A DNA stretch of 36,000 nucleotides from IMG/VR virus record IMGVR_UViG_2534681759_000010, positions 1-36,000 of that record. One strand, 5' to 3'. A program made the position numbers and the translations under genes. Each line of letters begins with the position of its first letter. Position 1 is the stretch's first letter. Under the pieces are notes generated by a model that was not told where the DNA came from, made no database searches, and was given only the letters and a program-made list of their open reading frames with translations. Below are positions 11,565 through 33,239 of the stretch, piece after piece. This DNA comes from a virus. Its lineage: Duplodnaviria; Heunggongvirae; Uroviricota; Caudoviricetes.

Positions 11565-13577
11565 ATGCTTAAATTTCGCCGCGATCTTAACGGTTACGGT
11601 GGAGTTATTAACGAAGGGCATAACGATCAATACGAATTTGAAATTGCTTTCTCAAGTACACTGCCTTATCAGCGCCAATTTTGGGATGAGCAAAATCAAG
11701 AAATGGTGGTATTAGATGAAATTCTGGTACATACACCGGAAGCGGTTGATCTGTCTCGTCTGAATAATAACGCTCCGTTGCTGTTCAATCATAATTTCGA
11801 TAATCATATTGGTGTCGTTTGTAACGCTCGAATCGATGCGGATAACGTAGGTCGTGCTCTGGTTAAATTCTCTAAGCATGGCACTTTGGCTAATGATATT
11901 CGTAATAAAGTTATTGAAGGTACGATGGAAAAAATTTCTGTCGGCTATGACATTAAAGAATATCACATCGATTACGCTAAATCGCAACTCATTGTTTCTA
12001 AATGGATTCCGCACGAAATTTCATTTGTGACGGTCCCGGCGGACGATTCGGTCGGTTTAAATCGCTCTCTAAATACTATCACAGTTAATTTGGGGGCTAA
12101 ACGCGATATGACTAAAGAACAAATCGAAGAAATCAAAGAAGAACAAGAATCCGCTCAGGTTGAAGAAACTCCGGTAGAAGAAAATAAAGAACCGGAAGTT
12201 GAAGAAACTCAAGAGCGCCAAGTTGAAGAGAATGAAGAAAATGAAAATCTCGAAGACGGAAAAGACGCTGAACATCCTGAAAGTGTTGATGATGATAGTT
12301 CAACTGTTCGGGAAACAGAAGAAGTAAAAGAAGAACGTGAAGCCGCTCCGGTTGAAGAAGAAAAAACCGAGGAAGTGGCTGAACGTTCCGAAGAAGACGA
12401 ATTAGAAATCCGAGCAATCGCTCGTGAGTTAAATATTAACGAAGACGATGAAGAATTTAAACGCGCATTGGCAAATAAAGAAATCACGCCGGAAGCATTC
12501 CGCACTAAGGCACTAAATAAAATCGCTACTGCTCAACGTAACAACGAACAAATTAATAAGGAACAAATCATGGAAAAAACTTTCGATCTTAATAACGTAA
12601 TCCGCTCCCTGGTAGATGGCGACGTGCTCGGCGCTAACGAAGCTGAATATTCCGCTATGGCTGCTACTGCAACTATGCAGCGTGGTCGTGCTGCTCGTGG
12701 TGGCTCTGTATTCGTTCCGGCTGCTGCTATGCGTGCTGCTTCCGAAGGTAACACCAAAGCTACTCTGACTGCTGTTACTGATGAAAAACTGCTGACTGAA
12801 TCCTACATCGAAATGCTGCTTCCACAGTCTGTTCTGGGTCGTCTGGGTGTGACTGTTCTGTCTGGTCTGAATAGCCCGATTGCAGTACCAAAAATGACTG
12901 CTTCCAGCGTCGAAGCCTTTGGTTTTGTTGATGAAAATGGAAGTGCCCCCGAGTCGAAGGCTACCTTTGCAAACGTGAAAATGTCTCCTAAGACGTTTGC
13001 TGGTGGGAACCCGATCAGCAGAGCTAGCATTAAGCAAGTTCCCGGCATCGCTACCCTGATCACTGATCACATTAACAAAGCTGTTCGGATCAAACTGGAA
13101 CAACTGATTCTGTCTGACAAAGATAATACTCGTGGTCCGGCTGGTCTGGTTAAGCAACTGGTAGACGGTGGTCGCGTTACTAAGAAAGCCGCTTTTAGCT
13201 ACAAAGACTTCCTGAAAGAAATTGCAGCACTGACCGACGCTGGCGTTCCGGCACAGTCCATCAAGTTTGCAATGAGCGGTGCAACTTCTGCTGAACTGGA
13301 ATCTACCCTGAAAGATAACGGCGTTTCCGGTTATATCATCGAAAACGGCAAACTGGCTGGTTACGATGTAGTTACTTCTGGCGTTATTCCGGCAGACCAC
13401 ATCGTTCTGGGTGACTTCTCCGGTATCATGATCGGTGAATGGGGTGGTCTGGAACTGGATATGGACGACACCACTTACCGCGCACAGTCTGCTATCGTTC
13501 CGCGTATCTGGGTAGACCTGGACTTCACCGTAGTTCAGCCGGAAGCTCTGAAAGTTCTTCACATCTCCGCTGAATGA
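11565..13577 (+). CDS. Fusion polyprotein: HK97-type (S78) prohead protease, acidic scaffold-like linker, HK97-fold major capsid protein
   Basis: N-terminal LLFNHN...HEISFVTVPADDS fits S78 motifs; an E/D-rich stretch of about 150 aa; C-terminal half ends like an HK97-fold capsid protein (GDFSGIMIGEWGGLELD...). Confidence 0.7.
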   Translation: MLKFRRDLNGYGGVINEGHNDQYEFEIAFSSTLPYQRQFWDEQNQEMVVLDEILVHTPEAVDLSRLNNNAPLLFNHNFDNHIGVVCNARIDADNVGRALVKFSKHGTLANDIRNKVIEGTMEKISVGYDIKEYHIDYAKSQLIVSKWIPHEISFVTVPADDSVGLNRSLNTITVNLGAKRDMTKEQIEEIKEEQESAQVEETPVEENKEPEVEETQERQVEENEENENLEDGKDAEHPESVDDDSSTVRETEEVKEEREAAPVEEEKTEEVAERSEEDELEIRAIARELNINEDDEEFKRALANKEITPEAFRTKALNKIATAQRNNEQINKEQIMEKTFDLNNVIRSLVDGDVLGANEAEYSAMAATATMQRGRAARGGSVFVPAAAMRAASEGNTKATLTAVTDEKLLTESYIEMLLPQSVLGRLGVTVLSGLNSPIAVPKMTASSVEAFGFVDENGSAPESKATFANVKMSPKTFAGGNPISRASIKQVPGIATLITDHINKAVRIKLEQLILSDKDNTRGPAGLVKQLVDGGRVTKKAAFSYKDFLKEIAALTDAGVPAQSIKFAMSGATSAELESTLKDNGVSGYIIENGKLAGYDVVTSGVIPADHIVLGDFSGIMIGEWGGLELDMDDTTYRAQSAIVPRIWVDLDFTVVQPEALKVLHISAE

Positions 13578-13711: not shown

Positions 13712-13740
13712 AGCCCTGCCTAACGGTGGGGCTTTTTTGT
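13712..13740 (+). terminator. Rho-independent terminator downstream of the capsid gene
   Basis: AGCCCTGCC-TAAC-GGTGGGGCT hairpin followed by TTTTTT. Confidence 0.6.
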
Positions 13741-13768: not shown

Positions 13769-14059
13769 ATGTTCAAATTATCAGAATCACAATTATCAAG
13801 AATGTTCCGAAGTGCTCCTGTATTTTCGGTGGAAGGTGGTAAATCAATTCGTGCTTATCATGAAATTACTACTACCGACGAATCAGGGGTAATGACAGAA
13901 ACAGAATTTCTATTTTGTCGTGAGGGAGACTTAAAGCAGGGTGATATTGTCATTGTAGAAAATCAGCGTTTCAAAGTTCAATACATTAAGCGCAATGGTG
14001 ACAATACAACTGATTGCTTTATTACTCTGGCAGGGGGTACACATGCTCGCTACCGTTAA
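13769..14059 (+). CDS. Putative head completion or head-tail adaptor protein, 96 aa
   Basis: AGGGGG RBS; position after the capsid gene. Confidence 0.4.
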   Translation: MFKLSESQLSRMFRSAPVFSVEGGKSIRAYHEITTTDESGVMTETEFLFCREGDLKQGDIVIVENQRFKVQYIKRNGDNTTDCFITLAGGTHARYR

Positions 14060-14465
14060 TAACATGCCTAGACTGAAAATCAAACGCGCCTTGCAAGATA
14101 TTATCGAACAAGATTTAGGTCTGGCTTTAAACGTAGAACAAACTCAGCAAGGCTTTAGTGATGACGTGGTTTGTTGGATCACCGGAATGAATGAGACTTA
14201 CACGCGTGTTCGTGGCGGTAATGCAATGCAAGCTGAATGTGTTATCGAAATGCAATTGTATTCTCAGATTCATGAAACCAAAATTCATGAGGGTATTTGC
14301 CAGATAATCCAGATTCAGCCGGATAACCCACGTTTTAAAGATTTGGGCTTCGCTATTTCAGATATCACTCCAGTAGCTTCTAATACCGATTATGACGATG
14401 ATTCTAGTGATGGGGGTATCGTTGGGACACTTAGCCTTAAATTTTCTTATCTAGCGCGTTTTTAA
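14043..14465 (+). CDS. Putative neck or tail-terminator protein, 140 aa
   Basis: Internal ATG with AGGGGG RBS (track start 13995 + 48); overlaps the upstream gene by 17 nt. Confidence 0.4.
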   Translation: MLATVNNMPRLKIKRALQDIIEQDLGLALNVEQTQQGFSDDVVCWITGMNETYTRVRGGNAMQAECVIEMQLYSQIHETKIHEGICQIIQIQPDNPRFKDLGFAISDITPVASNTDYDDDSSDGGIVGTLSLKFSYLARF

Positions 14466-14474
14466 GGGGTAATA

Positions 14475-15308
14475 ATGAATATTACACAAGATAACTTAGA
14501 CATTTTCACGGGGTCACATGTTGTCGTTTCCGTGTCTGATATGGTTGATAACCAGCCGGACTTCTTCGATCCCAGCTTTAGCCCGATTGATAACGTGGCA
14601 TCATTCCCGACGATCACCGAATCCACCGAGATAGAAACTCTTGAGGAATATGATCATGATGCTACTGGTAAACTTGCCGGATACCGCAAATTAGAACCGA
14701 CTACGCTTGTTTTAAACCGTGTTATCGACGACGAACATCAAGCAATGTTGATGAAAGCGGTAGAGGATAAAACACCTTTACGCTTCCGTATGTTCTATGT
14801 TGTGAACTCCGGTTACAGTGCTGCTAACACAGGTTACTATGTGATCTATGATGCTTATGTCACATCACACAAAACCCGTGGTAGCGATAACAAAGCTGTA
14901 ACTATGGAATTTAAGATCGAACCTGATGGCGGGATTCTGGATCGCGGTATTGCAACCGAGGGTCGTCTGCTCCGTCAGGGCGATATGGGCGTTGGTGCAG
15001 GAATTAGCCCGTTCACTGGTCCTACCGATAGCGAAGTATTAGCGGGTAACCGTTTCGTAACTTATCAGGGATCGAGCGCATCTAATCCATTTAGTGCTGA
15101 TACTTCACTAATTCACGTTCAACCTAATGACGATGGTGGATGGCAATTAACTTGCACCGCTTCCGGCGCACCACGTTTACGAGTTCGCACAGTCCAGAAA
15201 GACGGTAATTCTGGATGGGTGAAAGTGTATTCCACAGAAGAAAAACCGACACCAGCCGAGATTGAAGCCGTTTCTATCCATGACCGGATCGATTTCGGTG
15301 AGTTCTAG
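14475..15308 (+). CDS. Structural protein, 277 aa; C-terminus carries a KPTPAEIEA motif shared with the tail fibre
   Basis: GGGG RBS; C-terminal EEKPTPAEIEAVS echoes DKPTPAEIGAYS inside 15384..18914. Confidence 0.45.
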   Translation: MNITQDNLDIFTGSHVVVSVSDMVDNQPDFFDPSFSPIDNVASFPTITESTEIETLEEYDHDATGKLAGYRKLEPTTLVLNRVIDDEHQAMLMKAVEDKTPLRFRMFYVVNSGYSAANTGYYVIYDAYVTSHKTRGSDNKAVTMEFKIEPDGGILDRGIATEGRLLRQGDMGVGAGISPFTGPTDSEVLAGNRFVTYQGSSASNPFSADTSLIHVQPNDDGGWQLTCTASGAPRLRVRTVQKDGNSGWVKVYSTEEKPTPAEIEAVSIHDRIDFGEF

Positions 15309-15383
15309 TATTCACTTCCTAAATAAAACATGACGCGGGGAGGTTAACGCCTCCCTTATTCCTGTTTTATGTGAGGTGATTAG

Positions 15384-18300
15384 ATGCAATCAATCCAATT
15401 TAAGCGAACTAATGTAGCTGGCAAAAAGCCAACGCCGGAACAATTACAGGTCGGTGAGGTAGCAATCAACCTTAAAGACCATGTTATTTTTACCAAAGAC
15501 CGAGATCATGAAGTAGTTCAAATCTCTGTTTCTCCTGAAACTCACGCGGCACTAGAATCTAAAGTTGATGCTAACAAACAAGAACTGGATAGTACAATTG
15601 CAGTAAATGACCGCAATATTCACGCTAAAGTAGATGAAATTAAACAAACTACTGATGCAACCATCGCAGCAAATCACGCAGAAATTAACAATAAAGTTGA
15701 TGTAATTAAACGCGAAACCGACGCGACAATCGAGGCCAATAAAAATAAAGCTGCTTCCGATCTTGCTGGTGTTAAAGCTGAATTGTCGGATACCATCAAC
15801 GCTAATAAAAATGCGGCTGCTGTAGCAACTCAGGAACTGGACACCCGCATCAATAAAAAAGTTGATGATATTAAATCCCGTACCGATGCAACCATCGCAA
15901 GCAATTACAAAGCAATCAATGACAAAGTTGATTTGATTAAGGCAGAAACTGACCGCACTATCGCAGCAAATCACGCCTATGCGGAAAATCAGTTAACTGA
16001 CACCTACAATAACCTTACTGGTGTGATTGCGGCTAATAAGCAAGAGGCAGCGGATAACGTCGCAGCATTAACCCGTGATGTTGAAGCCAAAAATTCAGCA
16101 ATTCATAGCAAAGTTGACAATAACAAGTCTTACACTGATTCTGAACTGGCACGCTTAGAAAGCCGTATTGATGCAGCCGACGGATCGAGTGATGGCAAGT
16201 ACATCAAAAAACACGTAAACACTTATACTGATGGTTATTTGTTGTCTAAGACCGCAAACTATTTTGATGATCCGACCGCACGAAATCTTGATTATTTTGG
16301 TGCATTCCGCATGAATGACCTGGCGGGTCATATTGCAATGATCTTGCATGTTCCGCATCCATCTGGTGTTAATCATGCTCGTGGCTTTGAGTTCACTTAT
16401 GGGTCTAATCCGGTTCATACGGTAAGAACATACGGCTACGATGAATTGGGTAACTTGTCATATTCTCACCGCATGTATCATGAAGGCGATAAACCTACTC
16501 CGGCTGAAATTGGCGCATATTCGAAAGCAGAAATTGACCGACTGTTCCAGAAGACGCTTAATTTTGGGATCGAGGGTGGTTGGTTTAAACTAGGCACTTT
16601 GACAATGCCACAGCAACACGGTCGTAGTGCTAAGATCCGCTTAGTTGGTGGTAACGGTTATAACGTCGGGATGAATGGACAAGCCAATATTATCGAATTG
16701 GTGATTCGATGCGGCAACAATAGCCCGAAAGGTGTTGTATTCAATGCGTATTATACTATTTGGCATTATGAACAACATTTTTGCGCTATTCCAACCGATG
16801 GCGACAATTACGATCTTTACGCTTACTACGGTGCACATACAGGATTTGTTTTAGCAGAATATCAAGTTTCTTCCGGTGGTGTTTCTTTAAACCTGTTGGA
16901 TACTCCTGAATATCTGGGTGGTGAAAAACCTGTTGCAGATGAAATTTTTGATGCTCTTAACATTTCATCGTTCAATAACTTTAGCAACCGTGGAACGTTA
17001 AATTTTGCTGGAAACCATCAAGGCCAATACGACATTGAGCATATGAACGAACAACCGACAAATGCTAAAAAGATGTTGCGTCGCTTCCGTAGTTCTGCTC
17101 CTGCCACTATCTGGCACGAAAGTGTTGATGACCAAAATTATCGTCTTGCTACTGGATATACCGATGTAACCCAACAATTATTGCTTTCGGCTGTAACCGG
17201 TTTGCATATTCGTAGATTGACCATCGATGGTGGCTTGGGTTCCGGTTCTAATGCTGGTATTGATATTCGTCGAGGACCAAACGAAGCAAGCCATTTTAAT
17301 TTTATGGATTATCGCACTGGTCAAGATGTTCGTAATGGCTGGTTTGGTTTTGGTGATTTGACGACCAAAGATTTTATTTGGTGGAACGATAACGGTCAAA
17401 ACTCAATAAACTTGATCGAAAACGGTGAATTGCATATTACTGGCGGTAAAGGCCAGAAAATTGTAATGAATAGCGAAGTTGCATTATCTGAAAATGCTCG
17501 TTTGGCTGTCAGAGGCGGTAACTATGGTTTGATATTACGCAATGATGGTTCTAACTTCCATATTCTTACTACCGATTTAAAAGATTCTTTTGGTAATTGG
17601 AATAATCGCAGACCATTCAGCTATAATTTTGAGGACGGTGGACTATATTTAGGTGGCACTGAAACTGCTCGTTGTTTGCATCTGGGAATTGATGGTAGCA
17701 CTCGTCTCGAAGACAACCTTTTCTTTAAATCTGGTTCTCGTCAATCTATGGACTATATGGAACTCGTCCATTGGGGGGCAAGCAATACAGGTCGAAATAA
17801 CGTTTTAAGTCTTCGTGACTCAAAAGGATTTTTAGCCGAATTTGAACGCGTGGGGGGGACTAACGGCGTTAAAACCAGATTCTTTGGTGAAACCTTCACT
17901 GACGGTACATTATACCTAAATCAGATGAATAATAGCTCTGAACGATTCTCTATCAACAATTGGGGAAATTCAGAAGTTGGTCGCGCGGCAGTAATGGAAA
18001 TCGGCGATTCAAAAGGTTATCACTTCTATACTGAACGTAGGACAGATAACAGTTTGATGTTTGATGTTGCTGGCGCTTTTACTGTGCATGGATCTAGCGG
18101 GATCACTATCAAAAACTCTGATGGTGCTCGTCACATCTGGTTTAGAGATAACAGCGAATCGGAAAAGGCTGTTATTTGGGCGACCGATGAAGGTATTTTA
18201 CATATTCGCAATAACCACGGTGGACCATTTAGTCATCACTTTAAGGGTGCAATGATTCAACTGGAAGGGCGTGTTCCTTATGCCGCAGATCAAGGACTTA

Positions 18301-18914
18301 TCCGTGGTGAAGTTGATGGTGGTGCATATGTTGCATGGAGAGACCGCCCTGCTGGTTTGTTGGTTGACTGCCAGAAAAGTGTTGACAGTGCTCATGCTGT
18401 TTGGAAAGCGGTTGATTGGGGGCGTCAATATATCGCTGCTATGGACGTTCACTGTCCGGGTGATGGTAATAATACCGCAGCCGCTGTTCTTCATGTTCAG
18501 GCTGCCGATTATCAATTCCATGCAAGCGGAGAATTTCATGCCACTGGCAACGGAAACTTTAACGATGTGTATATTCGTTCTGACCGTCGCCTTAAAGACA
18601 ATATAGAAGATTATACCGGAAATGCGTTAAGTTTGATTGGTAAGCTGAAAGTGAAAACTTACGATAAAGTTAAATCTCTTAAGGACCGTGAAATTATAGG
18701 CCATGAGATTGGCATTATCGCACAGGATTTACAAGAAATATTACCAGAAGCTGTGAAATCTTCAAAAGTTGGCAATCTTGATAATCCAGACGATGTTCTG
18801 ACAATTTCTAACTCGGCAGTGAACGCGCTGTTAATTAAAGCGATTCAAGAAATGAGCGAAGAAAATAAAATCCTTCGTGAACGTCTTGCTGCAATTGAGG
18901 CTAAATTAGGGTAA
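15384..18914 (+). CDS. Tail fibre with N-terminal repeat region and C-terminal S74-type intramolecular chaperone domain
   Basis: About 19-aa repeats (KVDxIKxxTDATIAAN) in the first 250 residues; C-terminal NDVYIRSDRRLKDNIE...IIAQDLQEILPEAV resembles the self-cleaving chaperone domains of T5 pb1 and K1F endosialidase. Confidence 0.8.
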   Translation: MQSIQFKRTNVAGKKPTPEQLQVGEVAINLKDHVIFTKDRDHEVVQISVSPETHAALESKVDANKQELDSTIAVNDRNIHAKVDEIKQTTDATIAANHAEINNKVDVIKRETDATIEANKNKAASDLAGVKAELSDTINANKNAAAVATQELDTRINKKVDDIKSRTDATIASNYKAINDKVDLIKAETDRTIAANHAYAENQLTDTYNNLTGVIAANKQEAADNVAALTRDVEAKNSAIHSKVDNNKSYTDSELARLESRIDAADGSSDGKYIKKHVNTYTDGYLLSKTANYFDDPTARNLDYFGAFRMNDLAGHIAMILHVPHPSGVNHARGFEFTYGSNPVHTVRTYGYDELGNLSYSHRMYHEGDKPTPAEIGAYSKAEIDRLFQKTLNFGIEGGWFKLGTLTMPQQHGRSAKIRLVGGNGYNVGMNGQANIIELVIRCGNNSPKGVVFNAYYTIWHYEQHFCAIPTDGDNYDLYAYYGAHTGFVLAEYQVSSGGVSLNLLDTPEYLGGEKPVADEIFDALNISSFNNFSNRGTLNFAGNHQGQYDIEHMNEQPTNAKKMLRRFRSSAPATIWHESVDDQNYRLATGYTDVTQQLLLSAVTGLHIRRLTIDGGLGSGSNAGIDIRRGPNEASHFNFMDYRTGQDVRNGWFGFGDLTTKDFIWWNDNGQNSINLIENGELHITGGKGQKIVMNSEVALSENARLAVRGGNYGLILRNDGSNFHILTTDLKDSFGNWNNRRPFSYNFEDGGLYLGGTETARCLHLGIDGSTRLEDNLFFKSGSRQSMDYMELVHWGASNTGRNNVLSLRDSKGFLAEFERVGGTNGVKTRFFGETFTDGTLYLNQMNNSSERFSINNWGNSEVGRAAVMEIGDSKGYHFYTERRTDNSLMFDVAGAFTVHGSSGITIKNSDGARHIWFRDNSESEKAVIWATDEGILHIRNNHGGPFSHHFKGAMIQLEGRVPYAADQGLIRGEVDGGAYVAWRDRPAGLLVDCQKSVDSAHAVWKAVDWGRQYIAAMDVHCPGDGNNTAAAVLHVQAADYQFHASGEFHATGNGNFNDVYIRSDRRLKDNIEDYTGNALSLIGKLKVKTYDKVKSLKDREIIGHEIGIIAQDLQEILPEAVKSSKVGNLDNPDDVLTISNSAVNALLIKAIQEMSEENKILRERLAAIEAKLG

Positions 18915-18952
18915 TTGGAAAGCGGGGAGAAATCCCCGCTAAGGATTCTTAT

Positions 18953-19249
18953 ATGGGATATTGGGTAAGTAGTGAAATTAATACTAAAATCGATGCTTTA
19001 AAATGGCATGTATTTGATATTCCTAACGGTTATGGTACTGCTCGCGCTGGTGTTGCTGTTTTAAAATATAATGCTGGTGGTGGATGGGCTGATGGTGTGA
19101 TTAACGTAGATGGTTTGACCGTTGCTCGTCGTCGTGGTGGAACTAATTGGGGATCTACTATAAATTCGTTTGTTCCTGCTGGCTGCACCGTCACCTGTGG
19201 ACACGGCGGTGATGGTGGTATTGAATATTTTAAATTCATGGAGTTTTAA
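18953..19249 (+). CDS. Gly-rich small protein, paralog 1 of 3 (FDIPNGY motif)
   Basis: 98 aa; shares W...FDIPNGW/Y, Gly-rich centre and an aromatic-basic C-terminus with the next two ORFs. Confidence 0.6.
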   Translation: MGYWVSSEINTKIDALKWHVFDIPNGYGTARAGVAVLKYNAGGGWADGVINVDGLTVARRRGGTNWGSTINSFVPAGCTVTCGHGGDGGIEYFKFMEF

Positions 19250-19251
19250 TT

Positions 19252-19557
19252 ATGGCTGGATGGATAAATCAAAGAATGTCAAACGCTATTAGTATTTGGG
19301 CTAATGGTGGGTATTTTGATATCCCAAACGGTTGGGTCACTGATTCATGCGGAATTGTTTTTGCTCATATGGAAGCCGTTAACGGTGCTGGTGATCTTGA
19401 TTCTGAATTGGCTGTAAATGGATTGATTGAATCAGGTCATCATGCTGGTGATGCTGGGAGTTGGGGCGCTAGTTCTTTAGTTGGCGCTGGTGCTACCGTT
19501 AGCTTTACATTGGGTAAAGGTAGTTTGCATTATTTCAAATTCAGGAGAATGCACTAA
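19252..19557 (+). CDS. Gly-rich small protein, paralog 2 of 3 (FDIPNGW motif)
   Basis: 101 aa; start 2 nt after the upstream stop. Confidence 0.6.
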   Translation: MAGWINQRMSNAISIWANGGYFDIPNGWVTDSCGIVFAHMEAVNGAGDLDSELAVNGLIESGHHAGDAGSWGASSLVGAGATVSFTLGKGSLHYFKFRRMH

Positions 19558-19859
19558 TGGCATTTTGGGTAGATGGCGCTTTGGGGAATAGGGCGGGTAA
19601 AGCAAATCAAGGATGGTTTGATATTCCTAACGGTTGGACAGCCGACGCTTTCGGGACTATTTCATTCTGTGCTCATTCTTCCGGTGGTGGCGGCGGTGAC
19701 TCTGAATTGTTTATTCATGGTTTTTGTGTTTCTGGAAGCCATAAGGGTCATGATTGGGGACAGATTCATTCTTGTATTGCACCGCAAGGGGCGGTAATTA
19801 CCGTTAGCACAAATAGGGGGATCGCTCATCTTCGTTATAGACGTTTGAGCAACCGCTAA
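19557..19859 (+). CDS. Gly-rich small protein, paralog 3 of 3 (FDIPNGW motif)
   Basis: 100 aa; TAATG stop-start overlap with paralog 2. Confidence 0.6.
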   Translation: MAFWVDGALGNRAGKANQGWFDIPNGWTADAFGTISFCAHSSGGGGGDSELFIHGFCVSGSHKGHDWGQIHSCIAPQGAVITVSTNRGIAHLRYRRLSNR

Positions 19860-19913
19860 ATAAATAGAATTACGGGTATGTGCCCTATTGTTTAAAATAG
19901 AAGGAAAAGAATA

Positions 19914-20384
19914 ATGACTACTAAATTTGATATTTTTTCTGGTGGCCTCGTTGGTCTGTTTCTGCATGAAGAAGTAACTAACACCGATCTTGACAGTGAA
20001 AGCTATCTGGAAATTCCAGAATGTGCGGCTTTCCCGGAAACTGGTGTAGAACGTTCTACTATCGATGTTCCTAACTTCGGTGGTCCGTATAACCGTAAGC
20101 TGGTTGGTCGTATGTCTGTACCGGATATCGAACTTTCGATCAACTACATGCCGGGTAACGAAGTACACGAAAAACTGATTAAAGCAACCGAAGACGGTAA
20201 GCGCGTACAGCTTAAAATTGCTTACTACATCGACGCTACGAAAAAATCTGGTGTGCACATCGCTTATAACGGCTTCCTGTCTAAAACTACCATGACTGGT
20301 GGTGAGGATGCTGTAGTAGGCCGTACCTTCACCTTTGTAGTAGATGGTGCTCCGGTTAAACAAGCTGTTTTCCAGAAAGTCTAA
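19914..20384 (+). CDS. Major tail tube protein
   Basis: 156 aa immediately upstream of the chaperone pair and tape measure; followed by a strong terminator, as expected for an attenuated highly expressed gene. Confidence 0.6.
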   Translation: MTTKFDIFSGGLVGLFLHEEVTNTDLDSESYLEIPECAAFPETGVERSTIDVPNFGGPYNRKLVGRMSVPDIELSINYMPGNEVHEKLIKATEDGKRVQLKIAYYIDATKKSGVHIAYNGFLSKTTMTGGEDAVVGRTFTFVVDGAPVKQAVFQKV

Positions 20385-20392
20385 TATTCTCT

Positions 20393-20419
20393 AGCCATCC
20401 TTCGGGGTGGCTTTTTTGT
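20393..20419 (+). terminator. Rho-independent terminator after the tail tube gene
   Basis: AGCCATCC-TTCG-GGGTGGCT hairpin followed by TTTTTTG. Confidence 0.65.
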
Positions 20420-24897: not shown

Positions 24898-25317
24898 ATG
24901 CTAAAAACTAGGCTTATCACCGATTACATCAATTCTTTAATAGGTCAGGAGTTCGTTCAAGGCGAGAATGATTGCAATATAATTGCATGTAAGATCATCG
25001 ATATTCTCGCTGGTACTGACCTATATAATTCTCTTTATAAAAAATATTCAACTAAAGAAGAAGGCTTGAAAATCTGCAAAGAATTAAGCGGATACACAAA
25101 CATCCTTCAACCAATTAAGAAACATTTCAAATTAGTCACTGATGATTTACAGGACGGCGACTTACTGGTCACAGCCCACAAATTAGGGAACCGCAAATAT
25201 TATTCCGTAGTTCCTCATTATTCCGGTTATGGCCTCGTTGAAGAAGATGGTATCTGGATGACCATTCCTGTTTCAGACATTGACTATGAACAAGTTTATA
25301 GATTCGGGGGTGAATAA
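24898..25317 (+). CDS. Tail-tip assembly protein with NlpC/P60-like Cys motif (GENDCN), lambda K-like
   Basis: GGAGG RBS; internal ATG (track start 24742 + 156); gene order. Confidence 0.45.
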   Translation: MLKTRLITDYINSLIGQEFVQGENDCNIIACKIIDILAGTDLYNSLYKKYSTKEEGLKICKELSGYTNILQPIKKHFKLVTDDLQDGDLLVTAHKLGNRKYYSVVPHYSGYGLVEEDGIWMTIPVSDIDYEQVYRFGGE

Positions 25318-28300
25318 TGGGATTTGAAGTATTGGTAGGCGCGGTTATTGCTGGTGCGTCTGCTGGGATGGCGGCAGCCGCAACATTTTCTGTTATGACC
25401 GCAGTCGCTATCGGTATGGCTGCTGGTGCAATGACCTTGATCGCTTCCACTGTAGGCGCACCAAAAACACCTAAAGTACAAAGCCCAGATAATGCGGTGA
25501 CACTAGGAACATCAAACGATCCTAAGACAGTGTTACCCGTTCTTTTCGGTACTACCCGCACGGGTGCAATCTGCGTTTATAAAGCAATTTCACAGCGTGA
25601 AAACAACAAACTGGTACAAATTTTTGCTATTTCCGAAGGTGAGATCGATCACTTTAAAGCACTGCACATCGATAATAAAAACGTTCTCATTAGCCAGAAT
25701 ATGACAATTCGTGATGGTATTCTCGATAAAGGAAACATTAAAGACGAATACCGCAAAGTGTTAGAAGTCGAGTTTCGCACTGGTAAAAATCCTAACACTG
25801 CATTGGATCTGGCTAAACATCATTTGGGCGCAGATTGGGATGATCGGTATCAGGGTAACGGCATTGCGACTATGTGTATTGTTTTACGTCGTGATGACAA
25901 ATCTCTTGCTGCTGGTGTTGATATTCTCCAGCCTAATAGCCAGGTAGCGGTCGATGTTATGGGCTTAAAAATCCGTAACCTCGAAACCAATGCTATTGAG
26001 GCTAGCACTAACGGAGTGGATCAGATTTTCCACTACCTAACAAATGAAAAATATGGCTTATCCGTACCAATTGAAAACATTAACGTTGATTCATTCCTGA
26101 AAGTACGTAAACAAGTACGCCAGATGGATTTGCATTCAAACGGTGCATGTGATCCGAACGCCAGCTTTAAAGAGAACTTGACCAGTCTTATGCAGACTTT
26201 CGGCGGGGTGATGTTCGAATCCTTTGGACGTATTACGCTGAAACTGGATGCTCCTGATATTGTTAAGCACACCTTCAATGAAGACAATATTATGATGGGG
26301 AAAGTATCACTGAAAACAGGTGGCACTAACGGTTATTTCAATACCATTAATGCGATGTATCAAGAACCATCAATCGACTATTCAGAGCAAATGCTACGTT
26401 ATCCGGCTGATGCTGAAAACGATGCTACTGTTCGCGCAGATGGTCGAATTATTGCTAAGGATGTAGAATATCGTTTCGTTAAGTCTAAAGCCCAGATTGA
26501 TAAACTCGCGAGCATTGAGCGAAATAAATCTCGTATCACTCAGGTTATCAGCTTTATGACTACTGACGCATTCACTGCCGAAGTTTGGGACGTTATCAGC
26601 GTAACCTATGATGAATTAAAACTGAATAATTCACTTTGGCGCATTACTGCAATTGATCGTTCTATTGATTCTGGTATTGCTGGGATGATGACTATCACCG
26701 CTACAGAATATAATTCTCAGGTTTATACTGACCTGAACTATGCGGCGACTCCAGACAATAGACCTACTGGTTTACCGGATTCAATGACAGTACAGAAACC
26801 GACTAATTTCAGAATTAAGGCAACTGGTGAGACAATCCACGGTAAAAACGTAACTTTGACATGGGATGCACCGGAAGATTTCAACCGCTACGGTTTCCAG
26901 ATTGATTATCGTGTGAGTGGATCACCTAACTGGATTAAGCTGGGACAGACTTCACAGCAAATTTTCAATATCAATGCACTGGCAAAAGATCGCTCCTACG
27001 ATTACCGCGTTTGTGCTTTCGGTATTATTGCTCGTTCCGAATGGGTGGAACTGGTTAACCAGAATCCAGAAGTTACCTATGAATTGCCTACGCCAGTGAT
27101 CCGCATCAAAAATCAGGGTAGCACACCAGGAACTTTTGAAGGCAATGATCTGATTATCGAATGGGAAAATCAGCAAGCCTTAGATGTGGTTATCAACGGT
27201 GAAACTAACAAGTTTAGTGACCTGTTTGAAGCCTACATTATCAAGGTAACTAACAAGGCTGGTAAGTCTATTCAGTACCGTACCCGCGATCCTGAATCAT
27301 GGACTTATACGCTTGATATGAACCAGTTTAACGGCCTTTCCCGTGAATTGACGGTAGAAGTATCAGTCAAGGGCTATAACAACTCAGAGAGCGCCCCAGC
27401 GCGTTTAGTGGCTATTAACCCACAGCATAAGCCAATGAAAGGTTTTAGTGCGCGTGGTGGCTTTAATACTGCGTTTGTTAGCTGGGCGGATGACGTAGAA
27501 CATGACTATGCAGGGTCAATCATCCAGTATGCAACCGATAACACTTTCTCAGATGCAAGGGCAGTGACTACCAATAGCGTCAGTCATACTTCCTTTGATT
27601 TGGCTGACGGTGATTATTATATCCGTGGTGCTCACTATGATATTTTCGGTATGGATGATGCTGTTTGGTCTGAACCGTATTTCATGCAAATGAAATCTAC
27701 CATTAGCTGGGACGATCAGGACAAAGAAGCACTGGAAGACCTGATTGGTTTACAAGACCGCTTAGATGAAACTATCGCGGATGCTATTGCTCAAGCTGGC
27801 GCTAATGCCGATGCTAAAATTGATGCAATGCATAAGCAAATCACTACCGAAACAGGGCAGACGGTCCAAGCCTCAGCCGATACTCTCAAGAGTCTGATTG
27901 CTACCAGCGAGCAAGCTAGCTCCACTAAGATTGATCAGGTTAAAGCTGAACTGAAAGGCGATATCACCAAAGAAGTTAGTGCATCTGCTACTACCCTGAA
28001 ACAAGCAATTGCTACCAGTGAGGCAGCAAGCGCAAGTAAGATTGATCAAGTTAGGGTAGAAATGGATGGCAAGATTGCTGGTGTGAATCAGGAAGCAGAT
28101 GTAAAAATCGATGCTTTGAAGGGAACCATTAACAGCAAATATAATCTGGCGGTTAATGCAGATGGTCGCGTGGCTGGTATTCATATGAGCGCAACCAACG
28201 ATCCGGCGCAACCGACAAGAATCATCTTTACGGCTGATAAAATCGCGGTAGCTCCACAAGACGGATCGGAAGTATGTCCGTTTGGCATCGAAGATAACAA

Positions 28301-29093
28301 AGTTTATCTCGATAATGCGATGATTCGTAATGGGGCGATCGGAACAGCCCAGATCAACGATGCTAGTATCACCACGGCTAAGATCGGCACAGCCCAGATT
28401 AACGGCGCTCACATCCAACACGCACAGATCGGAACAGGTCATATTATTGATGGCTCTATCGATAATGCTAAAATTGGTAACTATATCCAGTCTTATAACT
28501 GGAATGGTAACGATGGATGGTATATCGGCAAAGATGGCACTTGTCATTTTAGACACGCTAATATTCGTGGTCATTTGGTGGCTGATTCCGGCGAAATGAA
28601 CAACGTAACGATTAATTCAAGTTGCCGCATTTTGGGTATGCTTGATGCTAATCAGGTGCGTGGTGACTTCGTGAAAGCTATTGGTCGTCGATTCCCACAT
28701 TGGGACGAAAACCCATCATTGGGCTATCCCGGTTATCCGCAAGGTACAATCACTGTTCGAATTGAAGATGATCACCCGTTTGATCGTCAGATTATCGTTC
28801 CGGCTATTAGCTTTGGTGGTCTTAATGCGCGTGAAGGCTCGAATAACAATACTTACTATGATAACTGTCGCTTGATTGTTCGCAAGAACGGTGCTGAATT
28901 ATATAACCGTGCATATGGTAGACAGACTGGATTGTATAGTGCTGTTATTGATATGCCAGCCGGACACGGACCAGTTACGCTAACTTTTGAAGTAAGTTCA
29001 AGCGCAATCAACAACTGGACTCCCAGCACATGGATCAGCGATCTTTCTGTAATTGTTACTAAGAAAGCCGCTACGGGTATTTCTGTTTCTTAA
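25317..29093 (+). CDS. Central tail fibre / host-specificity protein: lambda I C-terminal domain fused to lambda J, with a lambda-J-like C-terminal receptor-binding domain
   Basis: N-terminal hydrophobic Gly/Ala segment and KTVLPVLFGTTRTG resemble the gpI C-terminus (NVLPVLYGEMRVG); IFAISEGEIDHF resembles J VIDAISEGPIEG; C-terminus DDHPFDRQIIVPAISF...VIDMPAGHGPVTLTFEV...ISDLSVIVTKKAATGISVS closely parallels lambda J DDHPFDRQIVVLPLTF...IVDMPAGRGNVILTFTL...VMVIKKQALGISVV. Confidence 0.85.
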   Translation: MGFEVLVGAVIAGASAGMAAAATFSVMTAVAIGMAAGAMTLIASTVGAPKTPKVQSPDNAVTLGTSNDPKTVLPVLFGTTRTGAICVYKAISQRENNKLVQIFAISEGEIDHFKALHIDNKNVLISQNMTIRDGILDKGNIKDEYRKVLEVEFRTGKNPNTALDLAKHHLGADWDDRYQGNGIATMCIVLRRDDKSLAAGVDILQPNSQVAVDVMGLKIRNLETNAIEASTNGVDQIFHYLTNEKYGLSVPIENINVDSFLKVRKQVRQMDLHSNGACDPNASFKENLTSLMQTFGGVMFESFGRITLKLDAPDIVKHTFNEDNIMMGKVSLKTGGTNGYFNTINAMYQEPSIDYSEQMLRYPADAENDATVRADGRIIAKDVEYRFVKSKAQIDKLASIERNKSRITQVISFMTTDAFTAEVWDVISVTYDELKLNNSLWRITAIDRSIDSGIAGMMTITATEYNSQVYTDLNYAATPDNRPTGLPDSMTVQKPTNFRIKATGETIHGKNVTLTWDAPEDFNRYGFQIDYRVSGSPNWIKLGQTSQQIFNINALAKDRSYDYRVCAFGIIARSEWVELVNQNPEVTYELPTPVIRIKNQGSTPGTFEGNDLIIEWENQQALDVVINGETNKFSDLFEAYIIKVTNKAGKSIQYRTRDPESWTYTLDMNQFNGLSRELTVEVSVKGYNNSESAPARLVAINPQHKPMKGFSARGGFNTAFVSWADDVEHDYAGSIIQYATDNTFSDARAVTTNSVSHTSFDLADGDYYIRGAHYDIFGMDDAVWSEPYFMQMKSTISWDDQDKEALEDLIGLQDRLDETIADAIAQAGANADAKIDAMHKQITTETGQTVQASADTLKSLIATSEQASSTKIDQVKAELKGDITKEVSASATTLKQAIATSEAASASKIDQVRVEMDGKIAGVNQEADVKIDALKGTINSKYNLAVNADGRVAGIHMSATNDPAQPTRIIFTADKIAVAPQDGSEVCPFGIEDNKVYLDNAMIRNGAIGTAQINDASITTAKIGTAQINGAHIQHAQIGTGHIIDGSIDNAKIGNYIQSYNWNGNDGWYIGKDGTCHFRHANIRGHLVADSGEMNNVTINSSCRILGMLDANQVRGDFVKAIGRRFPHWDENPSLGYPGYPQGTITVRIEDDHPFDRQIIVPAISFGGLNAREGSNNNTYYDNCRLIVRKNGAELYNRAYGRQTGLYSAVIDMPAGHGPVTLTFEVSSSAINNWTPSTWISDLSVIVTKKAATGISVS

Positions 29094-31130: not shown

Positions 31131-31712
31131 TTAGAATATGCTGGCGACGTTAGCTATATTTCTGACCATTTTTTCATTATAAACAAACGTTTCTGTAGCA
31201 CCTTCTTTAATATCAAAATCACCTTTTACTAGGTTTTTCTTGATAAACAATTCTGCCGCGTATGCGTCTTTTTCGTCTTGAAATTCGAAAGCCTCGATGA
31301 TATCAAATTTCATCTTATTCTGGCATCTTAGCTTATGTTTTCTCTTCAACACATTGTGACTTACTCCAACCTTACCCACATCACCACACCGCATAACATA
31401 TAATACTGGTTGCCCATTTTTATATTTGTTGTCATATTTGCTACGATTACACGGGCACACAGTAGGATTATGTAAGAATTGTTTTGCTGTTATATCTCTG
31501 ATTCTTGCGCAGCTTTCACACTCTAGCACAATACGGCTATTGATTGATTTATACTCACCTTTGAATCCGTGGTAAATCAAGGGTAAACCCTCGTTTTCAA
31601 TACGGGTCACGATCCTTGCTTCCATATCAATTGGATGTGATGGCGCTTTGCCATTTTTGGTGCGGATAAAATTGAACGGGATATCACATGCTTTGCGCAC
31701 ATCATTCATCAT
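31131..31712 (-). CDS. Zinc-finger plus T5orf172 (GIY-YIG superfamily) domain protein; homing-endonuclease-like
   Basis: Cys cluster CESCARIRDITAKQFLHNPTVCPC; LYVMRCGDVGKVGVSHNVLKR ... ETF fits the T5orf172 pattern. Start set at the internal ATG with a GAGG RBS (track start 31724 is a GTG). Confidence 0.55.
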   Translation of the reverse strand: MMNDVRKACDIPFNFIRTKNGKAPSHPIDMEARIVTRIENEGLPLIYHGFKGEYKSINSRIVLECESCARIRDITAKQFLHNPTVCPCNRSKYDNKYKNGQPVLYVMRCGDVGKVGVSHNVLKRKHKLRCQNKMKFDIIEAFEFQDEKDAYAAELFIKKNLVKGDFDIKEGATETFVYNEKMVRNIANVASIF

Positions 31713-31752
31713 AAAAAACCTCACTTAATTTATCTTATAGGCATTACCTTTA

Positions 31753-32205
31753 ATGTTGATGATCGAGTTCGTAGAAACCGAATTAACTAAACTGGCTTCC
31801 GAAATGGAAGAAGAAACTCCGGCAGAAGGAACCAGTATTAACGATCTTATTCTGGCAGCAGATACCGCAGATGATAAAGTAGTATTCGACGAAGTTGATC
31901 CGTCTCTGGTTGAAGCAATGAAAGAACCTGAGATCGTCATTGAAGAAACAAAAGAAGAATCTCCAGCAGTTGAACCAGTGGTCGAAGAAGTTAAGTCAGA
32001 TGTTGAAGAAGCACCGGAAGTTAAAGTGAAATCTCCGGTAGCAAACATTTTCTCTGACGAAGCAGAACATCGTTCCCCAGCACATGACACTGATTCATTT
32101 TGCGATCTTACTGGCTTCCGTCCGACCATTTGCTTGATCGGTGGCGGTCGTGGTTACTACTCCTGCCCGTGGTCTTCAACCATTACAACAAATTTTTCTC
32201 AATAA
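31753..32205 (+). CDS. Highly acidic protein, 150 aa (E/D/V/P-rich, VEE repeats); DNA-mimic or anti-restriction candidate
   Basis: Frame uses codons I recall as preferred in enterobacteria (GAA, CCG, CTG, GCA); the overlapping minus-strand ORF 31725..32129 is a Ser/Thr-rich antisense shadow. Confidence 0.5.
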   Translation: MLMIEFVETELTKLASEMEEETPAEGTSINDLILAADTADDKVVFDEVDPSLVEAMKEPEIVIEETKEESPAVEPVVEEVKSDVEEAPEVKVKSPVANIFSDEAEHRSPAHDTDSFCDLTGFRPTICLIGGGRGYYSCPWSSTITTNFSQ

Positions 32206-32240
32206 ATAGTAGTGAACTTATTATTTTCGAGGACACTAAT

Positions 32241-33239
32241 ATGAATACTACTTTAGCAAAGGATATCGAATTTACCGCAAAAAGCAAACGTGCGACCCCT
32301 CCGGTCGAATATGAAACCAGAATCATTAAAGTTTGTCAAGCGCATGGATGGTTATACAGTGGTTTTGTGCTTCCTGTAAAGAAACCATTCCAGAACACCA
32401 AAGTTTGCATAGAAGTTAACGGAAAGGTTAAAACGCCATGTATTAGTCATGTTCTAACTGGTCAGTTTACTGGCAAAGATAGAGTATCACCGCCTAAGAA
32501 GAAGTTTAGATTTACCGAAGAAGAACACTTAGAAAACGCTCGCAAGTTCTACAAGCCGATAGGGTGGGATGTGTTAGGTCTGGCTGAACCTTATCAGGGT
32601 GTTGACACTAAACTAATTCTTCGTTGTAAGTGCCACGGAAAGATTCACAAGAAAGGTGATTTACACAATAACCGCAGACAAGGCGGGTTAACATGCCCTT
32701 TGGTTAGGGGTGTACTTAAATCAATTCAGAATGGTAGAAAACAGGTTATCAGAAACAAGTTTGCACAGCGCCCTATGCACTTTTATCTAATTCGTGTTGG
32801 CGAGAAGTTTTTCAAATATGGAATTACCACTCGCAAAGATCCGATGCAACGGGTAAGAGAACACCAGAAGCACACCAGCGAGAAAATCACCTTTGAATGC
32901 TCACATTTGTTTAACATTGGATGGAAAGCTGGTGATTTAGAAATGGGGATTAAAAAGAATATTCAGGGCAAGAAAATCCCACGTAAGGTAATGAATAGCG
33001 GATTCACAGAAACGCTACCGATTAGCAAGCTGAAAGATGTTAAATCATTCATCAATGAATACATCCACACCAACCCATCTAAGCCAATGTATTTTGATGA
33101 TACCAACGCAATCAATCTGAACAACTACATTAGTGATGAAGACATAGAACGAGATTTATCGCAGTGGATGAATGCACCGTTAGCTGATTTAACACCGGAA
33201 AACTTAGAACTCGATTTAAGCCCTTTAGAGGCTCTCTAA
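32241..33239 (+). CDS. Second zinc-finger plus T5orf172 domain protein, divergent paralog of 31131..31712
   Basis: GAGG RBS before the internal ATG (track start 32100 + 141); Cys/His cluster RCKCHGKIHKKGDLH...LTCPL; HFYLIRVGEKFFKYGITTRKDPMQRVREH fits the T5orf172 core. Confidence 0.55.
   Translation: MNTTLAKDIEFTAKSKRATPPVEYETRIIKVCQAHGWLYSGFVLPVKKPFQNTKVCIEVNGKVKTPCISHVLTGQFTGKDRVSPPKKKFRFTEEEHLENARKFYKPIGWDVLGLAEPYQGVDTKLILRCKCHGKIHKKGDLHNNRRQGGLTCPLVRGVLKSIQNGRKQVIRNKFAQRPMHFYLIRVGEKFFKYGITTRKDPMQRVREHQKHTSEKITFECSHLFNIGWKAGDLEMGIKKNIQGKKIPRKVMNSGFTETLPISKLKDVKSFINEYIHTNPSKPMYFDDTNAINLNNYISDEDIERDLSQWMNAPLADLTPENLELDLSPLEAL

Follow-up and report, generated by a model that had tools for sequence, protein, structure and literature searches.

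A proposed two-protein side-fibre assembly, built from T-even long-tail-fibre parts, on a lambda-like prophage tail

How is a side fibre held on a non-contractile tail when its gene lies ahead of the tail-tube gene? The question is raised by a locus in the IMG/VR virus record IMGVR_UViG_2534681759_000010 (Caudoviricetes), of which we analysed positions 1 to 36,000 as one stretch of 36,000 nucleotides (nt), hereafter the window. An original prediction had singled out two plus-strand open reading frames (ORFs) there, at 14475-15308 (277 amino acids, aa) and 15384-18914 (1176 aa), and had read the larger as a tail fibre ending in a self-cleaving chaperone and the smaller, which we call the adaptor, as the product of a neck gene sharing a possible attachment or trimerisation motif with it. 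We confirmed both ORFs and give a probability of about 65% to the reading that their products make up a side-fibre assembly, from parts of a T-even long tail fibre, for a lambda-like non-contractile tail. The recent exchange of a T-even gp37 fibre and the prophage nature of the element are points that the original prediction had missed.

A tube-like adaptor and a gp37-type fibre

Judged by profile, fold and alignment, the adaptor joins a paralogue of the tail-tube protein to a C-terminal connector of gp36 type. Its parts are given here with the canonical tube gene of the same element:

14475..15308, + strand: adaptor gene, 277 aa, 30.4 kDa; tube paralogue, central domain and gp36-type C-terminal plug
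14490..14960, + strand: adaptor residues 6-162, domain with the tail-tube fold, paralogous to the tube protein of the same phage
14961..15221, + strand: adaptor residues 163-249, Gly-rich linker and central domain, with positions conserved in 35 homologues
15222..15305, + strand: adaptor residues 250-277, gp36-type plug KVYSTEEKPTPAEIEAVSIHDRIDFGEF, by alignment with the end of G37-3 gp36
19914..20384, + strand: canonical tail-tube protein, 156 aa, phrog_158 (E 3e-20), followed by G/T-type chaperones and the tape measure

Adaptor residues 11-154 matched phrog_158, 'major tail protein' (E 1.5e-8), over the same profile region as the real tube protein, and a family-against-family comparison with hhalign aligned adaptor residues 6-162 with tube residues 3-155 (98.5% probability, E 1.6e-15, 20% identity). 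The AlphaFold2 monomer model was confident over residues 12-162 (predicted local distance difference test score, pLDDT, 80-95), and this domain matched ring-forming tube proteins over its full length, the long beta-hairpin included, such that profile and fold are both those of a tube protein. With this evidence the placement of the 277-aa protein among the neck genes gave way to its assignment as a tube paralogue. No Pfam family was found for the adaptor, and a PDB sequence search gave nothing useful.

Homologues of the adaptor fall into 84 clusters in enterobacterial genomes, spread over E. coli, Shigella, Salmonella, Providencia, Edwardsiella and Proteus, with identities from 96% down to 41%. 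Across 35 homologues the invariant positions are G163, G169, G172, G174, G176, NR192-193, W223, R236, R238 and W248, joined at the C-terminus by D273 and G275 (F274 is nearly invariant), and the family keeps the tube-like domain, the Gly-rich linker and the central domain as well as the terminal xIDFGEF. Longer members of 465, 482 and 699 aa carry extra shaft modules before the same terminus, each module ending in a KPT-type motif.

The plug KVYSTEEKPTPAEIEAVSIHDRIDFGEF aligned at 50% identity (E 9e-6) with ELYHEGHKPTPAEVGAVPLNAVIDFGTF, the last 28 residues of gp36 from Krischvirus vB_EcoM_G37-3 (G37-3), and both alignments end at the stop codon; the G37-3 protein was itself confirmed as gp36 by phrog_1425 (E 1e-54). 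Homology did not extend over the gp36 body, as the adaptor had no gp36 match in PHROGs or Pfam and its last 28 residues alone align. We read the adaptor, on this alignment, not as a member of the gp36 family but as the bearer of a gp36-type terminus. A sequence search with G37-3 gp36 found no solved gp36 structure.

The fibre, by its alignments, is homologous to T-even gp37 with a coiled-coil insert peculiar to its lineage, and is laid out as follows:

15384..18914, + strand: fibre gene, 1176 aa, 129.9 kDa precursor; phrog_1699, long tail fiber distal subunit (E 3e-135)
15384..15518, + strand: fibre residues 1-45, gp37-type N-terminal socket MQSIQFKRTNVAGKKPTPEQLQVGEVAINLKDHVIFTKD, by alignment to the G37-3 gp37 N-terminus
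15531..16178, + strand: fibre residues ~50-265, spacer with 11/22-residue periodicity, probably an alpha-helical coiled coil
16236..18578, + strand: fibre residues 285-1065, gp37-like shaft and receptor-binding tip
17322-17624: Gp34_trimer domain within the fibre; the most divergent part of the tip lies at about 18336-18578
18579..18911, + strand: fibre residues 1066-1176, S74 intramolecular chaperone, 12.3 kDa

By BLASTP, fibre residues 285-1176 share 75% aa identity with G37-3 gp37 and the N-terminus 36% (E 6e-10; residues 1-73 aligned, the first ~45 being the socket), with no counterpart in G37-3 gp37 for residues ~50-270. The coiled repeat region seen originally was borne out as an 11/22-residue periodicity over residues ~50-265 (26% identity at offset 22, 31% at offset 77), and a weak Pfam match to Apolipoprotein, a family of 11/22-mer helices, fell below its cutoff. 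Such a periodicity is typical of hendecad coiled coils. DNA-level tandem repeats were sought in this region and none of note was found, the repeat being seen at the protein level only. A Proteus relative encodes the spacer as a separate 198-aa protein, which in the window is fused to the gp37-like body.

A search with hidden Markov models placed Pfam PF13884 (Peptidase_S74), over the whole of its profile (positions 1-58 of 58), at fibre residues 1066-1125 with 57.2 bits where the cutoff is 22 (E 2.1e-15), in agreement with the chaperone first proposed, and the domain is C-terminal, following the gp37-like body and ending at the stop codon. The catalytic dyad of S74 domains is a Ser at the start of the domain and a Lys five residues downstream. 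Here SDRRLK starts at Ser1066, the codon of which (nt 18579-18581) begins one base from the cleavage position of 18578 given before. When S16 gp37 (6f45) is aligned, Ser1066 and Lys1071 fall on its SDRRIK, and they likewise match the MyRF domain (7dc3) at its equivalent position. Autocleavage before Ser1066 is predicted to leave a 117.7 kDa mature fibre and a 12.3 kDa fragment. We also considered a fusion of adaptor and fibre by readthrough or frameshifting and rejected it, for the two ORFs share a frame, yet four stop codons stand in the 75-nt gap between them.

The predicted joint between adaptor and fibre

Trimeric gp36 binds the N-terminal region of gp37 (PMC3004832). By homology with this T-even gp36/gp37 joint, the attachment contact in the window is predicted to be between the adaptor C-terminus ...IDFGEF and the fibre N-terminus IQFKRT...GEVAINLKD. 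The same pairing recurs among seven gene pairs from six loci, in which each examined protein ending in ...D(F/L)Gx(F/Y/E) directly precedes a gene with a product starting (I/F)(Q/K)FKR(S/T)...GE.xIN..D..(F/Y).(K/G)(D/N):

T4: gp36, followed by gp37
G37-3: gp36, followed by gp37
Window: adaptor, followed by the fibre
DCP80: 699-aa protein, followed by a 745-aa protein
Metagenome contig: 482-aa protein, followed by a 1053-aa protein
Proteus: 275-aa protein, followed by the 198-aa protein
Proteus: 198-aa protein, followed by a 675-aa protein

T4 gp36 ends in ...KDSVQDFGYY, and the socket motif is shared by the N-termini of T4 gp37, the DCP80 745-aa protein, the Proteus 198-aa and 675-aa proteins and the metagenome 1053-aa protein; in the window, a terminus of the form KP(T)xx(E/D)...DFGx(F/Y) is likewise encoded directly upstream of a gp37-type socket. 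The Proteus locus is the most informative case for a plug-socket rule, its 198-aa protein lying between the adaptor and the gp37-like protein and consisting of an N-terminal socket, a coiled coil and a C-terminal plug, MDFGTF.

The link that had first been drawn between the two window proteins was a different one, KPTPAEI. This 7-mer does stand unchanged in both proteins, at residues 257-263 of the adaptor (nt 15243-15263) and residues 370-376 of the fibre (nt 16491-16511), and of 20000 shuffles that preserved composition only 18 gave any shared 7-mer. As 5 of 7 synonymous codon positions differ between the copies, the motif is conserved at the protein level and a recent duplication of the DNA, which we had considered, is rejected. 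In the adaptor KPTPAEI is part of the terminal gp36-like plug and in the fibre it is internal, and it belongs to a motif that ends fibre modules, (Y/H)xxxxKP(T/S)xx(E/D), with four copies in Krischvirus gp36 alone. Because of these four copies, together with the pairing of DFG ends with IQFKR starts, KPTPAEI is best read as a recurrent module-end motif and not as a private link between adaptor and fibre, and the special role in attachment or trimerisation that had been proposed for it falls away.

These observations bear on the arrangement in which the fibre hangs from the neck, with KPTPAEI as a dedicated attachment or trimerisation element common to fibre and neck protein. Both genes do have the head-tail joining genes on one side and the tube gene on the other, the shared 7-mer is genuine and not a chance match, and the arrangement would be compatible with a head-proximal ring. 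It is nonetheless improbable, in that the upstream protein is a tube paralogue and not a connector, the motif marks module ends in other fibres too and has four copies in gp36, the fibre copy is internal and 370 residues from the N-terminus, and the conserved pairing is that of a C-terminal DFGxF with an N-terminal IQFKR domain.

Gene order, possible ring position and known fibre systems

The structural genes follow a lambda-like order, with a gpA-type terminase, a lambda-family portal, a protease-capsid fusion, an FII-like protein and a 140-aa protein on the head side, and the adaptor, the fibre, three small genes, the tail-tube protein, G/T-type chaperones, the tape measure and tip proteins on the tail side. 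Further features that bear on the assembly are:

14043..14465, + strand: 140-aa protein, conserved before the adaptor in all relatives; a candidate tail terminator, listed for context and no component of the fibre
15337..15356, + strand: terminator-like hairpin GGGGAGG-TTAA-CGCCTCCCT with a T-rich tail, between the adaptor and fibre genes, from a consensus scan
25317-29093: J-like tip protein with a C-terminal lambda GpJ-type receptor-binding domain (Pfam Ig_GpJ_C, E 2e-35)

As had been stated originally, the fibre is encoded before the tube gene (19914-20384) and not after J. It is the 156-aa tube protein, not the adaptor, that holds the slot directly before the G/T chaperone and tape-measure genes; the Prokaryotic Genome Annotation Pipeline (PGAP) names it 'phage tail tube protein' in relatives, its matches to the Pfam lambda tube families Phage_TTP_12/11 are below cutoff, and TAC_13 and Phage_tail_T matches lie downstream. 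The synteny of the adaptor is kept in DCP80, Proteus and metagenome contigs, and a search of 50,697 phage records brought up a single relative for the structural module, Escherichia phage DCP80, syntenic at 35-43% aa identity. The 140-aa protein gave weak PHROG tail-terminator matches in just one of four orthologues (phrog_78, E 1e-3; phrog_176, E 0.025) and neither a Pfam nor a PDB match in sequence and profile searches.

The 277-aa protein could also be a co-polymerising tube subunit, like SPP1 gp17.1* or lambda gpV with its immunoglobulin-like (Ig-like) domain, such that fibres would be scattered along the whole tail. A full tube fold and paralogy could keep both stacking interfaces, and a terminator-like hairpin follows the adaptor gene as it does the capsid and tube genes. 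We hold this to be unlikely, as the chaperone and tape-measure genes of every relative are directly preceded by a canonical tube gene distinct from the adaptor gene, the 20% identity to the tube protein suggests diverged interfaces, and every copy bears a fibre plug.

From the homologies, fold, motif pairing, synteny and exchange observed here, we infer how ring formation, stoichiometry, physical docking and cleavage might proceed in the two-protein assembly that we favour. The tube-like domain of the adaptor would form a specialised ring within the tube stack, three adaptor chains coming together, by way of the Gly-rich linker and the central domain, as a trimeric stub with the gp36-type plug at its end; an adaptor hexamer would then give two fibres per ring. 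The gp37-type socket of the fibre would dock end-to-end on this plug, as the N-terminal socket of T4 gp37 does on trimeric gp36, and the hendecad coiled-coil spacer would lengthen the fibre ahead of the gp37-like shaft and tip. The S74 chaperone would drive trimer folding and cut itself off before Ser1066, with Lys1071 as the general base, its release exposing the tip of a mature fibre of 117.7 kDa. Such a fibre would provide fast reversible adsorption, and the J-type central fibre, with its GpJ-like receptor domain, commitment to infection.

As to where the ring would sit, we lean, at somewhat less than even odds, towards the tube's distal end, on the analogy of T5 p140 and since a fibre of ~80 nm could not reach the tip of a ~120 nm tail from the neck (both lengths being rough estimates). 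A head-proximal ring is a lesser possibility that still deserves weight, given a gene order in which the adaptor comes after the possible (weak) terminator and before the tube gene.

Several points weigh against the two-protein assembly as a whole. A six-fold ring feeding three-fold fibres is a symmetry mismatch. Plain BLASTP of the adaptor against the tube protein was not significant, and their similarity consequently needed profile-profile comparison. The C-terminal half of the adaptor scored a pLDDT below 50 in the monomer model, too low to support the plug structure or trimerisation, though so low a score over residues 163-249 might also be expected of an obligate oligomer. The gp36 resemblance of the plug rests on ~28 residues. 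The 140-aa protein, if it were the terminator (a weak identification), would exclude the adaptor from that role.

Among known systems, the T-even gp36-gp37-gp38 fibre (T4, G37-3) shares with the window the gp37 homology, the N-terminal socket and a Gp34_trimer-type domain; the adaptor ends in gp36 sequence, and the small downstream genes of the window likewise occupy the gp38 position. It differs in its contractile baseplate, of which the window has none, in a gp36 body that is here replaced by a tube paralogue and a novel central domain, and in a gp37 without the ~215-residue coiled-coil spacer that follows the socket of the window fibre. For the proximal half-fibre gp34 and the knee protein gp35, the gene map of the window holds no ORF of comparable size or annotation, where not every small ORF was searched with profiles. 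The S74 domain aligns with that of T2/S16-type gp37 (PDB 6F45), SDRR(I/L)K included, and the sister prophage ETEC4085 carries just such a gp37 plus gp38 cassette, whereas the window has three ~100-aa paralogues (one with a C1q/TNF-like model) in place of gp38. The endosialidase/K1F tailspike chaperone, prototype of S74, belongs to the same Pfam family and has the same Ser-x4-Lys spacing, but sits on an endosialidase and not on a gp37-type fibre tip. Dit and T4 gp54, tube-fold rings with docking extensions, differ in that the adaptor gene is found upstream of the tube gene and not past the tape measure, a place taken in the window by a 186-aa candidate; the best fold matches of the adaptor are moreover true tube proteins, and its extension is a gp36-type plug.

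The closest functional analogue is the T5 p140/p132/pb1 system. T5 p140 is a duplicate of the tube protein and forms a ring at the distal tube end, where the fibre collar sits (PMC10038345), and the likeness to the window extends to a siphophage side fibre, a self-cleaving C-terminal chaperone and a tube duplicate as anchoring platform (PMC10038345). T5 differs by a separate, Ig-like and dodecameric p132 collar between ring and fibre, whereas the tube duplicate of the window itself bears the connector; the proteins are unrelated in sequence, and p140 is a trimer of duplicated domains where the adaptor has a single tube domain. No candidate gene for a p132 stands between adaptor and fibre, no p132 homology search having been made. 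In Ur-lambda, the N-terminal domain of Stf itself forms a dodecameric collar at the gpV/gpM junction (PMC12617516). Ur-lambda Stf/Tfa resembles the window as a temperate E. coli siphophage system with a J-type central fibre and side fibres with a gp37-homologous distal part; its stf, however, lies after J and is self-anchoring with a Tfa chaperone, in contrast to a fibre encoded upstream of the tube gene with a gp37-type N-terminus and S74. Downstream of J (25317-29093) we recognised no fibre or tfa-like gene, the ORFs there having no or unrelated Pfam matches, with the Stf-N fold not compared.

These collars suggest one further arrangement, in which the tube-like domain would stay outside the stack and the adaptor would be a trimeric proximal fibre segment held in an external collar like the lambda Stf N-domains or T5 p132. 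Known siphophage side fibres do use external dodecameric collars, which would avoid the 6-to-3 mismatch, and the longer homologues (465-699 aa) resemble fibre proteins with extra shaft modules. The known collar folds are nevertheless different (Ig-like in p132, a six-strand sheet and a helix in Stf-N), and the match of the adaptor domain to ring-forming tube proteins spans its whole length, long beta-hairpin included, which makes an external collar quite improbable.

Exchange with T-even phages and the prophage family

By megablast, 85 T-even-like phages matched the fibre gene. Nucleotide identity to G37-3 is mosaic, at 60-70% over 16236-16985, 75-97% over 16986-18335, 55-61% over 18336-18635 (the tip just before the cleavage site) and 93-99% over 18786-19875, the last stretch covering the end of the chaperone and three small genes and stopping 16 nt past the third. 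Shaft, tip, chaperone and the three downstream genes thus bear the mark of exchange with virulent T-even-like phages. In sister prophages other cassettes occupy this site: ETEC4085 has a gp37-like fibre together with a T2-type gp38 adhesin, and EC416 has a fibre alone. Fibre exchange between lambdoid and T-even phages was reportedly described by Montag et al. 1989 and Tetart et al. 1998. Distal-fibre exchange between the two groups has long been known (PMC11069274, PMC12617516).

The three small genes are tandem paralogues in the gp38 position, co-transferred with the fibre end:

18953-19249, + strand: first paralogue, 98 aa
19252-19557, + strand: second paralogue, 101 aa
19557-19859, + strand: third paralogue, 100 aa

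G37-3 has the same three genes between gp37 and the holin, which is the gp38 position. The paralogues have no family in Pfam or PHROGs and form only 10 homologue clusters; as triplets they are confined to 3 of the 50,697 phage records and to some few prophages of enterobacteria. One of them modelled confidently (pLDDT 84) as an N-terminal helix and a C1q/TNF-like jelly-roll, a fold usual in trimers and at fibre tips. That the three form a C1q-like heterotrimeric knob is an attractive guess from this model, and such a knob, as an accessory adhesin or a tip cap, would be of a kind not described before. The small genes are 97-99% conserved beside a fibre tip with 55-61% identity, and there is consequently no hint that they co-vary with the tip. 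Taken together, a portable gp36/gp37 docking standard, an attachment site made of a plug on a tube duplicate and a heterotrimeric C1q-like knob at the fibre end form a speculative extension that we consider more doubtful than not. Under it, any ...IDFG(E/T)F protein may be able to carry any fibre with an IQFKR...GE.AIN socket, across tail morphotypes, and spacers like the Proteus 198-aa socket-coil-plug protein may be insertable or fusible at will.

The window element is a prophage of ~36 kb; in strain PK8568 it is inserted in hicB, splitting that gene in two, and encodes a large serine recombinase. Its fibre region was present in 55 of 5426 complete E. coli genomes (~1%), at 88-94% nt identity. 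A decaying or cryptic module that assembles no fibre would fit the insertion sequence (IS) elements in the fibre region of some relatives, and no induced phage has been described, nor did our literature search turn up a relevant paper on DCP80. All structural ORFs are intact, however, the adaptor is conserved from 96% to 41% across six genera with invariant, functional-looking positions, and the cassette was recently exchanged, leaving decay as a very remote prospect.

Mobile elements were seen at several places. Other prophage copies have NUMOD3 or GIY-YIG nuclease genes among their tail and fibre genes (L003 31423-32193; H57, H64), and IS elements lie inside the fibre region of other copies; these insertions point to frequent mobile-element traffic in the module. 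In the window, 415 bp at 31759-32173 are 99% identical to an internal part of 'inh' (prohead protease inhibitor) of Krischvirus phages such as JSE and phiS, within an ORF at 31753-32205 (+) flanked by ORFs at 31131-31724 (-) and 32100-33239 (+). An adjoining ORF gave weak GIY-YIG-type matches (T5orf172, MUG113) and a CapR-domain match, and the PK8568 copy appears to be without the inh-like segment. The stretch looks like T-even DNA brought in by an element of the homing-endonuclease type.

Further observations concern the neighbouring genes and the wider relatives. Hairpins similar to that after the adaptor gene lie 3' of the capsid gene (13712-13733) and the tube gene (20393-20412); the total hairpin count in the window is not above shuffled expectation, and the hairpins after the capsid, adaptor and tube genes may be attenuators setting the stoichiometry of downstream products. 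One 670-aa ORF (11565-13577) combines an S78 prohead protease, a long acidic Glu-rich linker, which is probably the scaffold, and an HK97-type major capsid domain. The tip proteins upstream of the J-like protein match phiJL001 Gp84_N and DUF6950 instead. The same lambda/HK97-type morphogenesis module, adaptor and fibre included, is found in DCP80 (PQ671644.1), a phage genome of 141 kb classed with the Straboviridae, in which motA and endonuclease VII genes are present too, and on metagenome contigs of 246 kb and 174 kb (L006/L007), where it adjoins an endonuclease VII gene. These records are either large phages joining T4-type genes to a siphophage-type virion module, or misassembled or misclassified.

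An S74 fibre and exchange with T-even phages are in themselves ordinary; what is new is the architecture of the adaptor and the generality of the plug-socket signature. In the structural literature consulted, siphophage side fibres are anchored in two modes, the T5 p140/p132 collar (PMC10038345) and the lambda Stf self-collar (PMC12617516), and the T5 paper explicitly expects other solutions elsewhere (PMC10038345). Our findings suggest a third, in which a tube duplicate with a T-even gp36 connector holds a complete T-even distal half-fibre on a non-contractile tail, an arrangement of which we found no account in the part of the literature covered. The 93-99% nt identity to a virulent Krischvirus indicates that prophages and T-even phages currently draw on one pool of receptor-binding cassettes, which bears on the evolution of host range in phage therapy. 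If the plug-socket rule is confirmed, it would offer a simple sequence signature for which proteins chain in multi-part fibres along with a defined junction at which host range could be engineered across myophages and siphophages.

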